A program made the translations under genes and the position numbers. A stretch of 64,000 bases of DNA from an uncultured Candidatus Saccharibacteria bacterium (GTDB lineage: Bacteria; Patescibacteriota; Minisyncoccia; Phycocordibacterales; UBA918): positions 27,280-91,279 of the forward strand of contig CAYOAM010000002.1 in assembly GCA_964402035.1 (NCBI GenBank), given 5' to 3'. Positions within the stretch are counted from its first letter, which is position 1. The number at the start of each line of letters is the position of its first letter. Under the pieces are notes generated by a model, which was not told where the DNA came from, made no database searches, and was given only the letters and a program-made list of their open reading frames with translations. Below are positions 7,222-56,466 of this stretch, in pieces.

Positions 7222-7587
7222 CTACACTCGCTCAGTGCTAGAATTTGAGGCAGACTTGCGAGAAAAAATTTTTTTGATAGAAAAGTAAATTGCGCCAAGA
7301 AATAAGCCAAGAAAACTGTAGAGCAGTAGATTTATTACGAAGACGACAAGATAGAGTTCTCCCATGCCATCCTTACAATAATCTGGCACCCCTAATCCAC
7401 CCATGCACGCAAACAAGATAAGACCTCCTGGGTAAGTTGCTATAGATTCGATAAACCCCGTCAAACGATACAGCCATGGGAGTGTATAACCAAAATTAAT
7501 ATCAAGAGAGTTAACAAAACCAGAAAAAACAGAAGCCGCAATCAACGTATATCCAACCCCAAAATACATTGCTGATTTATAAAGCAT
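7222..7587 (-). CDS. Hypothetical polytopic membrane protein
   Basis: 121-aa ORF with 3-4 hydrophobic segments; directly downstream of fba (2-nt gap). Confidence 0.45.
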   Translation of the reverse strand: MLYKSAMYFGVGYTLIAASVFSGFVNSLDINFGYTLPWLYRLTGFIESIATYPGGLILFACMGGLGVPDYCKDGMGELYLVVFVINLLLYSFLGLFLGAIYFSIKKIFSRKSASNSSTERV

Positions 7588-10386: not shown

Positions 10387-10845
10387 TCAAGCGCCGGCGG
10401 TTTCCCGCACAAGCTCCTTGAGCGGGAGCCTGGCCTGGGCGCAGTTCTCGATGAATACGATGAGGAAAAGCTTCCCATCTTCATCGGCTTCGACTTCCGC
10501 CGAAAACTGACGTCCGGTCTGCTCGAGAGCGACGAGATCATGAAGCGAACCGAAGTTCCCCCACTTCTCGAAATCCGCATCCTCGAGAATGACCTGCCGC
10601 AAGCGTTCCCATCCTTTTGGGTTGTTGAGGAGTGACGGCGCCGGTACGGTGCTGTCGAAGTCAGACCCCGACACCCTGTCGCCGCCGCCTTCGAACTCGA
10701 CATACGCCAAGACGAAGAGGAGTCCGTCCTTCGATTCGACGTAGAAGTCGGTCTCCGGGTGCCTGAGTTCACATTCATCAGCCGCGAGTGCCTTGTGGCA
10801 GAGATCGGTAATCTTAATCCGAGCTGCCTCGAAAACGTAAGTCAT
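10387..10845 (-). CDS. Hypothetical acidic protein (~152 aa) in an atypically GC-rich gene with a strong Shine-Dalgarno sequence
   Basis: Start at MTYVFEAARIKITDL with GGGAGGATGG immediately upstream. The codon third positions are visibly G/C-rich, unlike neighbouring genes. The listed 236-aa ORF over-extends upstream. Confidence 0.5.
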   Translation of the reverse strand: MTYVFEAARIKITDLCHKALAADECELRHPETDFYVESKDGLLFVLAYVEFEGGGDRVSGSDFDSTVPAPSLLNNPKGWERLRQVILEDADFEKWGNFGSLHDLVALEQTGRQFSAEVEADEDGKLFLIVFIENCAQARLPLKELVRETAGA

Positions 10846-10988
10846 GCCATCCTCCCTGAGGATCCACGGTACGGCGTGGTCCGTTTGAGCATATGCTCGT
10901 CTATTCAGATTATACCATATATAAAGTACTGTTGTCAACCGTCTAAAAACGGCTTTACAACGACTATTTTTGGGAGCATAGTCTTGCC

Positions 10989-11789
10989 ATGGAATCGTTT
11001 GATAGTGAGGTAGCATGGCTACTGAAAGAGAAATATGGAGGCGAAAAAACCGACGGTTTTTTCGCCGATTGTGCTCGACTAGAGGCCGGAGAACCACTCG
11101 CCTACCTTATAGGACATGTGCCATTTCTAGACACCAAAATCTACTTAGATTCGCGTCCTTTGATACCACGGGCAGAAACTGAATATTGGGTGGAGCATGC
11201 TATCCACGATATTCGCATTAATATACTAAGTGCGATGAGCAGCCCCAAGGGTAACCCTTGGCGTGGCCAAGGGTTACCCTTGGGGATTCGTATCCTCGAT
11301 CTCTGTGCTGGTTCGGGCTGCGTTGGGATCGCCGTACTCAAACATATTCCCGAGACCCACGTCGACTTGATCGAGATTGATACTGATCACCACCCTACTA
11401 TTTTAAAAAATGTATTAAAAAACAACATTGAAAAATCACGCGCAAGGATCGTCGGAGGTGACACCTTCAAAGAAGCAGATGGCCCGTACGACTACATACT
11501 TACTAATCCGCCATACATTGATCCGACACTTTCGGGGCGCATAGAAAAAAGTGTACTCGAACACGAACCTCGCCTAGCGCTATTTGGCGGCAAACAAGGT
11601 CTCTACACCATCAATCGCATCGTCGATCGAGCTCCCGCTTTTCTGACTCCCGGCGGTACGATGTTTCTTGAACATGAACCCGAACAAACTGAAGCGATAA
11701 CTGCCTATGCACGACAATGCGGCTACAAAGAAGTCACCACGCATAAAGATCAATACAACGTTGATCGCATGACGATGCTAAAAGTGTAG
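10989..11789 (+). CDS. prmC: Release factor glutamine N5-methyltransferase PrmC/HemK, carrying a 15-aa in-frame palindromic insert
   Basis: EPLAYLIGHVPF...RPLIPRAETEYW; ILDLCAGSGCVG SAM motif; ILTNPPY catalytic NPPY motif. Confidence 0.8.
   Translation: MESFDSEVAWLLKEKYGGEKTDGFFADCARLEAGEPLAYLIGHVPFLDTKIYLDSRPLIPRAETEYWVEHAIHDIRINILSAMSSPKGNPWRGQGLPLGIRILDLCAGSGCVGIAVLKHIPETHVDLIEIDTDHHPTILKNVLKNNIEKSRARIVGGDTFKEADGPYDYILTNPPYIDPTLSGRIEKSVLEHEPRLALFGGKQGLYTINRIVDRAPAFLTPGGTMFLEHEPEQTEAITAYARQCGYKEVTTHKDQYNVDRMTMLKV
11243..11285. repeat. 43-nt near-perfect palindrome (two 17-nt palindromic units CCAAGGGTAACCCTTGG / CCAAGGGTTACCCTTGG) inserted in-frame in prmC
   Basis: CCCCAAGGGTAACCCTTGG-CGTGG-CCAAGGGTTACCCTTGGGG read directly. 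It encodes SPKGNPWRGQGLPLG just upstream of the SAM-binding motif, and the mirror peptide PKGNPWPRQGLPLG appears in antisense ORF 11141..11341. Confidence 0.7.
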
Positions 11790-11863
11790 CGGATTTACGG
11801 AAGTGACTGCAGCAACCCCAACTACACATAGAGTCCGACCTAAAACTATGCAACAATAGTCCT

Positions 11864-12067
11864 ATGCAGCTTTCGATTGGAGTCAACATGTTTCTTCAGG
11901 GTACTTTTTTCTTTCTGCTATTTATATTTACCATATACACCGTCATCCTTGGTTACCATTGGTATACGTACGGTAGATCAAAAAAGACGACAACAACCCT
12001 CCTTGCGACATACCTCATCGGCGGTATTTTCTGCTTTGTCCTCATGGGCACCTTTCTTATTACATGA
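11864..12067 (+). CDS. Small hydrophobic membrane protein (67 aa)
   Basis: Two predicted TM segments; its stop overlaps the start of the next gene (ATGA). The overlapping alternative-frame ORF 11877..12080 is less protein-like. Confidence 0.4.
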   Translation: MQLSIGVNMFLQGTFFFLLFIFTIYTVILGYHWYTYGRSKKTTTTLLATYLIGGIFCFVLMGTFLIT

Positions 12068-12642
12068 ATACGCAGGCTGAACAACTAAAACTCGATGACG
12101 ACGAGAGTATTGTCCGCGTCGTGCGCAAGCACTGGTTTATTCTTATGGTACAAATAGTGAGTATCATCTTTCTTGCACTTGCTCCTTTTTTTCTGCTTGG
12201 CGTCATGTGGGTTTCTGGCGTCACCGCGACGCTCCCGCTTGATTTTTCTATGTGGTATAGCGCCGCAGGATTCCTGGGCGCAGCGTGGCTATTGATCTCG
12301 TGGATGCTCCTCTTTAACATCCTCACTGACTACTACCTCGACATGTGGATCATCACCAACAAACGCGTGATCACCATCGACCAACGTGGTTTTTTTAATC
12401 GCTCTGTTGCAAGCTTCCGCCTTGAGCGTCTCCAGGACATCACCGTTGAGATCAAAGGTATTATCGCTACCATGCTCGACTTTGGGACTATCAAGGCCGA
12501 CACCGCAAGCCATACCGATGCTTTTGTGATCTTTGGTATCCCCAATCCTCGCGAAATCAAATCATTGATTCAAGAAAATGCGGACCGTATGCTTGAAAAC
12601 CCAAGCCCAAACAATGTTGGTTCATACCGTACCGGCGTGTAA
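12064..12642 (+). CDS. Membrane protein with bacterial PH (bPH_2/YdbT-like) domain
   Basis: N-terminal paired TM segments followed by ...DYYLDMWIITNKRVITIDQRGFFNRSVASFRLERLQDITVE..., typical of DUF304/bPH_2. Confidence 0.5.
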   Translation: MNTQAEQLKLDDDESIVRVVRKHWFILMVQIVSIIFLALAPFFLLGVMWVSGVTATLPLDFSMWYSAAGFLGAAWLLISWMLLFNILTDYYLDMWIITNKRVITIDQRGFFNRSVASFRLERLQDITVEIKGIIATMLDFGTIKADTASHTDAFVIFGIPNPREIKSLIQENADRMLENPSPNNVGSYRTGV

Positions 12643-31800: not shown

Positions 31801-31860
31801 CCGCAAAGTGTACCCTTTGCGGCCTTGCCCAGAGGCTGCGCTTAGTGCGCAGCCTCTGGG
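31801..31860 (-). terminator. Tandem hairpins (CCGCAAAG...CTTTGCGG; 14-bp perfect CCCAGAGGCTGCGC...GCGCAGCCTCTGGG) downstream of the 111-aa gene
   Basis: Read directly; T-rich tract follows on the - strand. Confidence 0.5.
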
Positions 31861-31875
31861 CCCTGATTTCTCTTG

Positions 31876-48547: not shown

Positions 48548-48616
48548 AAACTGAAAGAAATTGTCACACTGTGCGTACTAATAAGTGGACGTACATGTAG
48601 CAAGCTTATATACAAC

Positions 48617-48693
48617 ACAAACACCGCGCGCCTCATGAGGCGCGCGGTGTTTGTGTAGAAAAATCCTCACCAGCAATATAGCTGACGAGGATT
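48617..48693. terminator. Two consecutive hairpins between thrS and the 179-aa gene (the second overlaps the 179-aa gene stop)
   Basis: The first is ACAAACACCGCGCGCCT-CATG-AGGCGCGCGGTGTTTGT with a 17-bp stem; the second is AATCCTC...GAGGATT. Confidence 0.55.
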
Positions 48694-56401: not shown

Positions 56402-56428
56402 CAGATCTTAAGAATCACATTACAGAGC

Positions 56429-56466
56429 AATAGGCCGGCGCCCAAAGCGCCGGCCTATTGTGTTTT
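56429..56466. terminator. Bidirectional terminator
   Basis: AATAGGCCGGCGC-CCAAA-GCGCCGGCCTATT followed by GTGTTTT. Confidence 0.6.

Follow-up and report, generated by a model that had tools for sequence, protein, structure and literature searches.

A 43-nt palindrome in frame within prmC of an uncultured Saccharibacteria bacterium is probably an intragenic REP doublet linked to a Y1 transposase family of Patescibacteria

Results

A perfect 43-nt inverted repeat lies inside an intact prmC gene

The DNA analysed here (the window) is a 64-kb stretch of contig CAYOAM010000002.1 from an uncultured Candidatus Saccharibacteria bacterium, and it carries a 43-nt palindrome at positions 11243..11285, within the reading frame of prmC. 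In our assessment this palindrome is probably an intragenic doublet of repetitive extragenic palindromic (REP) units, similar to a REPIN (a REP doublet forming a hairpin), which belongs to a REP-Y1 transposase system of the Candidate Phyla Radiation (CPR, or Patescibacteria). Each half of the palindrome is a unit that is dispersed through Patescibacteria genomes, mostly just past the 3' ends of genes, that flanks genes of a Y1 transposase family, and that is found in frame in several other protein-coding genes.

The palindrome reads CCCCAAGGGTAACCCTTGG-CGTGG-CCAAGGGTTACCCTTGGGG. An original prediction, made from the letters of the sequence, had described it as a near-perfect palindrome of two 17-nt palindromic units around CGTGG, inserted in frame in prmC in the manner of a Rickettsia palindromic element (RPE). 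It was found to be perfect over all 43 nt, with 20-bp arms and a 3-nt GTG loop identified by both a repeat finder and folding. REP unit 1 (CCAAGGGTAACCCTTGG, 11245..11261), which PrmC reads as KGNPW, forms a 7-bp stem around a TAA loop, and REP unit 2 (CCAAGGGTTACCCTTGG, 11267..11283) is inverted with respect to unit 1 and read as QGLPL; no strand is assigned to either unit or to the doublet. The centre of unit 2 is TTA, and in the opposite orientation it would place a TAA stop in the prmC frame. Perfect pairing continues one base further on each side into the 5-nt spacer (11262..11266), with C11262 and G11266 extending the stem and GTG (11263-11265) forming the loop. Both units follow the pattern CCAAGGGTWACCCTTGG, or equivalently CCAAGGGT(A/T)ACCCTTGG, and a 17-nt unit folds by itself into a 7-bp stem with a 3-nt loop. 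RNA folding of the doublet gave -45.8 kcal/mol, compared with -20 ± 2.9 for shuffled sequences (z = -8.9), and none of the 200 shuffles folded as well. We calculated that chance alone would yield perfect 20-bp inverted repeats with loops of 3-8 nt about 3e-7 times per 64 kb. The 17-nt pattern had four matches in the window (0.06 expected), these being the two units read on both strands, and no further copy was present there even when 3 mismatches or looser patterns were allowed. Besides the window's own record, identical DNA was seen in two other assemblies (ERZ3430525 and SRR7369912), and ERZ3430528 contains an allele with 99% identity that encodes the same 15 residues. As the doublet recurs in three further assemblies, it is not an assembly artefact.

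A MITE (a miniature transposable element with inverted repeats) was considered and rejected. MITEs are 70-300 bp in length, with terminal inverted repeats of a parent insertion sequence (IS) and a target-site duplication, whereas the doublet is only 43 nt, consists entirely of hairpin and has no direct repeat at its edges. An intrinsic terminator was also rejected, as a terminator scan of positions 10700-12100 made no call at the doublet, and its tail, GGGGATTCGTATCC, contains no U-tract or T-run.

The host open reading frame (ORF), prmC/hemK (10989..11789, forward strand), encodes an intact protein of 266 aa with LDLCAGSG and NPPY motifs and a Pfam MTS domain (PF05175). Codons 85-99 (11241..11285, forward strand) specify SPKGNPWRGQGLPLG without a frameshift, as predicted, before the S-adenosylmethionine-binding motif. 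The opposite strand of the same interval reads PKGNPWPRQGLPLG, so that the prediction of one peptide on both strands was nearly right, the two being almost but not fully identical.

Alignment with orthologues and structural modelling, which had been proposed as checks, both agreed with an extra segment. The prmC homologues belonged to Patescibacteria and bore labels including Minisyncoccia, Paceibacteria and Kaiserbacteria, the nearest beyond the window protein's own cluster being 57-59% identical. All catalytic motifs of the window PrmC aligned with theirs. In an alignment of 34 homologues, the position of the insert corresponded to a length-variable linker located immediately before (V/I)LDLCAGSG. 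Measured from ETExW to LDLCAGSG, this linker is 35 aa long in the window PrmC, compared with a mode of 16-22 aa among 121 homologues, about 80% of which have short linkers and 20 of which have linkers of at least 27 aa. In a neighbour-joining distance tree built without the linker, the window PrmC was placed among proteins with linkers of 16-18 aa, indicating that the long linker is derived in the window lineage, and in the nearest relatives the linker is shorter by about 15 residues. Against E. coli HemK (2b3t), 27 residues of the window PrmC correspond to only 7 (query 72-100 aligning to 103-111). An AlphaFold2 model with a mean predicted local distance difference test score (pLDDT) of 91 has a helix at 62-84, a coil at 85-99 and a strand at 100-105, and pLDDT is at its lowest in this coil (77 and 63 for the 10-residue blocks). 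Taken together, model and alignment make the 15 palindrome-encoded residues coincide exactly with the loop. The 15-residue segment looks like an insertion into the linker, and the best reading is that PrmC tolerates a REP doublet in a surface loop.

The 17-nt unit is a dispersed repeat of Patescibacteria

A search for further copies, also suggested with the original prediction, was carried out as an exact-pattern scan with CCAAGGGTWACCCTTGG of a genome collection containing one genome per species (596 Gb). Matches were obtained in 113 stretches, with about 70 expected by chance at equal base frequencies (own calculation). About 80 of these stretches, from at least 41 assemblies, were labelled Patescibacteria, genomes of which presumably make up a small share of the bases scanned. 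The taxa represented were Saccharibacteria, Paceibacteria, and Kaiser-, Adler-, Zambryski-, Nomura-, Ryan- and Tagabacteria, and single metagenome-assembled genomes held several exact copies (about 12 in Modern_marine.mb.145, 8 in UBA910, and 7 each in H41-bin017_1 and Adlerbacteria C4_bin-407). The view that the palindrome is a single copy is therefore true of the 64-kb window only, since the unit is dispersed and multi-copy across Patescibacteria.

In a flank profile of 84 CPR copies, 70% had T at -1 and A at +1. The approximately 35 matches outside the CPR lacked this T/A consensus and look like chance. None of the 113 stretches with the exact unit carried a Rickettsia label. A scan of viral contigs returned 8 matches, about the number estimated for chance, and thus gave no sign of a phage vector. 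Screening of 18 unit-bearing CPR loci against Rfam at gathering thresholds returned tRNAs only and no family for the hairpin.

According to simple ORF calls, intergenic CPR copies were located between convergent genes in 12 cases, divergent genes in 1 and tandem genes in 25. Many were found 6-30 nt past a stop codon, and many intergenic members of the family have A/T-rich flanks. Doublets of the unit occur in other CPR loci too. The 12:1 bias of convergent over divergent sites, the post-stop position and the flanking of Y1 genes described below spoke against a parS-like or operator-like protein-binding site, which was rejected, and tens of copies per genome, rather than thousands, led to the rejection of a DNA-uptake sequence. 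Tandem copies in L059, L067 and L120 raised the question of a CRISPR array; this was rejected because the sequences between the units are identical, and the copies are hence tandem duplications.

These tandem arrays consist of unit plus flank, with a period of 34 nt at L059:2376-2426 and of 41 nt at L067:2688-2745 and L124:372-429. A 30-nt-period array at L120:1855-1901 and L123:11786-11832 is inside a Dus ORF, where it encodes STKIPRVTLG twice. They look like slippage duplications. Separately, a perfect DnaA-box-like nonamer, TGTGGATAA, was observed about 10-35 nt from the unit in several loci (L121, L129, L029 at ~2150-2165 and L052 at ~7570-7580), and in L121 and L129 it directly follows the unit downstream of the Y1 gene.

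The unit flanks genes of a Y1 transposase family

Neighbouring ORFs were taken from 8-kb loci around the repeat matches and clustered all-against-all. One ORF family was present in 13 loci. Its proteins, about 215-230 aa long, contain LMPNHFHLL and YIHLNP motifs and matched Pfam Y1_Tnp with 32-38 bits (cut-off 23). Of 120 close homologues, 119 have both HFH and YIHLNP. The Y1 gene had the unit, or a form of it differing by 1-2 mismatches, within about 80 nt in 10 of the 13 loci, mostly on both sides. Flanked genes were seen in L121, L129, L101, L127/L130, L035, L059 and L112, and in L097 with a variant unit. The usual layout is an upstream terminator, a unit, about 28 nt, an inverted unit, a promoter-like TATAAT, the Y1 gene, and at least one unit at or after its stop codon. 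The repeat differs by locus: L097 has CCGAGGGTTACCCTCGG on both sides of the gene, L112 has CCAAGGGTAGCCCTTGG, and in L029 the palindrome is another one. Flanking of a Y1 gene by a repeat of its own, in variants that differ from locus to locus, is the 'REPtron' signature of systems that combine REPs with REP-associated tyrosine transposases (RAYTs).

The protein collection contains 7,506 members of the Y1 family, and the top matches are 64-80% identical. Members bearing a source name are called only 'transposase', and their labels are nearly all CPR taxa. The identity of 64-80% across CPR classes (P0122-P0241) compares with about 50-59% for PrmC orthologues (P0002-P0120) in the same kind of genomes, which suggests either strong constraint on the enzyme or its horizontal spread; this would also explain the occurrence of the same repeat sequence across classes. 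It was also observed that a Y1 gene itself holds a REP unit in frame (L101:2396-2412, an exact 17-mer). The corresponding peptide, IQGLPLD (unit plus T/A flanks, at aa ~52-58 of Y1), is exact in 30 of the 120 top homologues and replaced by close variants in most others. It could be an ancient fixed REP insertion, or the source of the repeat. A second cluster of neighbouring genes, AAA+ ATPases of the RuvB, RarA and HolB types, was set aside as what looks like a domain-level lump of unrelated genes.

The unit is found in frame in other protein-coding genes

Only one of the unit's six frame-and-orientation combinations contains a stop codon, and each strand of the doublet can be read through in two of the three frames. 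In an RluD-like synthase, a doublet in frame falls in a 10-aa gap relative to PDB 11wx. In Tgt and SufS, the unit lies in regions with about 11 and about 5 extra residues, respectively, compared with solved structures. The unit or doublet was also present in long ORFs for PheT, RseP, Dus, a MurD-like ligase, LigA, DnaE, RNase HII and others, where the peptides encoded by the unit include KGNPW, QGLPL and PRVTLG. Two Adlerbacteria species carry the unit at the same DnaE site (L076:7704-7720 and L091:6291-6307), read as THD-[I/S]QGLPLD-Q before the conserved IRFGL; this common site indicates that an in-frame copy has persisted through speciation. A few of the matches within ORFs may be native rather than inserted, for example GNPWF in a GH15 protein and QGLPLG in a reverse transcriptase.

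The same PrmC linker is occupied in several orthologues

Syntenic orthologues, with the gene order ABC transporter, small ORF, prmC, small ORF, bPH_2 and hisS, had doublets belonging to this family in the linker as well. The doublet of L140 is a variant but perfect, CCGAGGGTAGCCCTAGGG aaat CCCTAGGGCTACCCTCGG, and is accompanied by a third unit; that of L142 is partly and that of L141 strongly decayed. Three further orthologues, L116 (3001-3885), L117 (14-802) and L118 (258-1055), contain unrelated GC-rich palindromes, perfect or nearly so, in frame in this linker. The palindrome is about 78 nt long in L116 and perfect over 41 nt in L117, and L118 contains a pair of hairpins, GTAGGGGT-nnn-ACCCCTAC, headed by GTAG as in classical REPs. 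In the tree built without the linker, the window lineage stands apart from L140-L142, which points to independent gains at a permissive loop. Independent gains would be the simplest reading of these sequences, with an older shared insertion possible within the L140/L142 group. The original prediction had named, as evidence against an insertion, a homologous but non-palindromic segment in orthologues together with an absence of other copies. Some orthologues do carry a homologous segment that has decayed, but many other copies of the unit exist, and for this reason the insertion reading stands.

A clade comprising P0049, P0056, P0063 and P0081 has linkers of 25-26 aa with GGATLPLGL-like peptides that recall QGLPLG. 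No hairpin was found in the DNA of L119 (3001-3765), a short-linker member of the clade with such peptides. These linkers may go back to an ancient insertion that has decayed completely, or the likeness may be coincidental.

Discussion

Comparison with known repeat systems

REPs are 20-40 nt long and are mainly extragenic, near the 3' ends of convergent or co-directional genes (Di Nocera et al. 2013, PMC3733652). The same study described a minority of intragenic REPs, including REP dimers in frame in genes of known function in Opitutus terrae, Rickettsia conorii and others, with a high share of dimers among intragenic copies, inserts of 20-30 aa, and families tagged with GTAG or CGTC. RPE-4 and RPE-6 together were assigned to the CGTC type of REP, for which no dedicated transposase was reported (PMC3733652).

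The CPR repeat resembles the REP/REPIN-RAYT systems (E. coli REP/BIME, the latter a bacterial interspersed mosaic element, with TnpA-REP; Pseudomonas fluorescens REPINs; 'REPtrons') in having a short GC-rich hairpin unit, inverted doublets that form a longer hairpin, dispersal mostly past the 3' ends of genes, and a Y1 HUH gene flanked by locus-specific repeat variants (PMC3733652, PMC5581495). It differs in its Patescibacteria host, in having tens rather than hundreds of copies per genome, in the intragenic site of the copy studied here, and in an enzyme of about 220 aa that scores below the NCBIfam RAYT cut-off. The unit measures 17-21 nt, at the lower limit of the REP size range of 20-40 nt, and is a perfect palindrome without a tag. 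GTAG and CGTC define the two described REP superfamilies and not REPs overall. Like the intragenic REP dimers described previously, the CPR doublets are in frame and tolerated by the protein; those dimers are from other phyla, tagged and 20-30 aa in length, while the CPR family is untagged and adds 15 aa, with one PrmC linker occupied in several distant orthologues. IS200/IS605 elements and those of their derivatives that are associated with palindromes share the Pfam Y1_Tnp superfamily and the recognition of subterminal DNA hairpins (PMC6006769). Unlike these elements, which have distinct left and right ends and move as a unit, most of the CPR hairpins stand by themselves with no gene attached, and where there is a gene it has the same unit on both sides.

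REP/REPIN-RAYT systems, intragenic REP dimers and RPEs are already known, and the advance is therefore one of scope and not of principle. What appears to be new is the host phylum, the untagged 17-nt unit, the enzyme subfamily of about 220 aa and the repeated occupation of one PrmC loop. A literature search for work linking RAYT or REPIN with Patescibacteria found no relevant paper.

How the doublet may have reached prmC

Under the preferred reading, the doublet, or a single unit that was later duplicated in inverted orientation, would have entered prmC as DNA. Entry would probably have occurred through the single-strand hairpin cut-and-join chemistry of a Y1 enzyme, as suggested by IS200/IS605 and RAYT enzymes (PMC6006769, PMC5581495). 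The landing site would be the linker that joins the final helix of the N-terminal part to the first strand of the methyltransferase fold. With its flanks, the insert comprises 45 nt, or 15 codons, and its survival could be accounted for by this length, by the two of three frames that are open per strand and by the tolerance of the loop. Selection would spare only inserts that keep the frame, avoid the stop-bearing frame and fall in tolerant loops, and the encoded peptide would be a passenger, presumably neutral, rather than a designed part of the enzyme. Y1-driven mobilisation, the time of insertion and the neutrality of the insert are points that we infer.

Several observations weigh against an intragenic REP doublet of this kind. 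No GTAG or CGTC tag is present at the unit in the 84 CPR copies, which share only T at -1 and A at +1. The best NCBIfam match of the Y1 proteins is indeed the REP-associated tyrosine transposase NF047646, but with 34-44 bits it is below the curated cut-off of 80. Neither a Y1 gene nor a second occurrence of the unit beyond the doublet is present in the 64-kb window, so that an active REP-transposase system in the source genome is hypothetical, and copy numbers are far below those of classical REP-rich genomes. An allele with an empty site was not found in the protein collection, where the closest PrmC without the insert is 57-59% identical; as no close relative provides an empty site, the boundaries and the age of the insertion are not fixed. 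Finally, the window and L140 doublets are both perfect while differing in sequence, which could reflect selection on structure.

Alternative explanations

The last of these points leads to the main rival, namely that selection keeps the hairpin a perfect palindrome because it acts as a structural element in the prmC mRNA or DNA (possibly a pause site, an RNase III site or a protein-binding site tuning prmC expression), with a REP origin that is only historical. The stem is perfect over 20 bp, and the L140 doublet carries three paired changes that leave the palindrome perfect at the doublet level. A strong or decayed linker hairpin was moreover seen in seven of the eight orthologues read (the window, L116, L117, L118, L140, L141 and L142), although these were mostly chosen for their long linkers. 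However, about 80% of the 121 orthologues have short linkers, and L119, the one short-linker gene for which the DNA was read, has no hairpin there. The copies in L141 and L142 are decaying, the same unit is scattered over unrelated genes and intergenic sites, and the hairpin is without a U-tract or a call in the terminator scan. Selection of the hairpin as a structural element is accordingly considered unlikely. Similarly doubtful is a broader possibility, in which the doublet is no passive passenger: Patescibacteria would maintain the perfect hairpin in prmC, an essential gene of translation termination, by structure-level selection or by enzyme-driven replacement from the resident REP pool, and the highly conserved Y1 enzyme with its repeats would be a domesticated system placing hairpins and short peptide loops in housekeeping genes throughout the phylum.

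Inverted duplication is among the mutational events known to produce perfect palindromes, and the arms of the doublet are exact inverted copies of each other. In another rival reading, native prmC sequence would have given rise to the palindrome on the spot, through template switching or an inverted duplication primed from a hairpin, with no mobile repeat involved. Each arm, however, is identical to the 17-mer found in dozens of other CPR genomes and on the flanks of Y1 genes, and the nearest relatives have no sequence at this site that could have been duplicated, which makes a purely local origin quite improbable. A mixed history, in which one unit was inserted and then duplicated locally in inverted orientation, is possible and is counted within the explanation as an intragenic REP doublet.

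The RPE likeness noted in the original prediction is borne out as far as behaviour is concerned, as in both cases palindromic repeats lie in frame, in a loop that the protein tolerates, and the ORFs stay functional. In addition, RPE-4 and RPE-6 are themselves REP-type repeats of the CGTC type (PMC3733652). That the palindrome is a member of the RPE family, or a direct relative spread horizontally, is nevertheless very improbable: compared by description, host, length and sequence all differ, the host being a Patescibacterium, the insert measuring 43-45 nt and the unit lacking the CGTC tag. The unit is also specific to the CPR, with non-CPR and viral matches at about the chance level, and it flanks a Y1 gene, whereas for the CGTC type no dedicated transposase is reported. 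The family to which it was instead assigned is a REP/REPIN family with a Y1 (RAYT-like) transposase.

A native, selected peptide loop of PrmC whose palindromic DNA is coincidental hardly merits belief, despite the orthologue clade with G..LPLG-like linkers and no hairpin (GGATLPLGL in P0063 and P0081), given the chance expectation of about 3e-7 for such an inverted repeat, a peptide that is simply what the unit encodes in any gene (KGNPW, QGLPL, PRVTLG) and a loop modelled as low-confidence coil.

Significance

Patescibacteria genomes are tiny and gene-dense, and are usually thought to be repeat-poor. The intragenic REP doublet and its relatives point to a phylum-wide REP-type repeat with a Y1 transposase that public records, where they name it, list only as 'transposase', and to the repeated in-frame writing of such repeats into essential genes, including the same PrmC loop in distant lineages. 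They offer a concrete origin for some unusual short insertions seen in CPR proteins. The unit could also serve as a strain-typing marker and, with its enzyme, as a simple enzyme-hairpin pair for studying REP-type movement.

Other palindromes in the window

A second, smaller perfect palindrome is present inside prmC at 11040-11066 (GGCGAAAAAACCG a CGGTTTTTTCGCC, with 13-nt arms). It encodes the segment GEKTDGFFA, and since this peptide is conserved among homologues the palindrome is probably a codon-level coincidence. Other long perfect palindromes of the window, among them those at 48615-48656, 43242-43284, 42070-42108, 31827-31861 and 56428-56460, were considered as members of the repeat family and rejected, as their sequences all differ from each other and bear no relation to the REP unit. 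Their appearance is that of ordinary terminators; four of these five are located between long ORFs, two of these between convergent genes, and the palindrome at 42070-42108 overlaps a 169-aa ORF.

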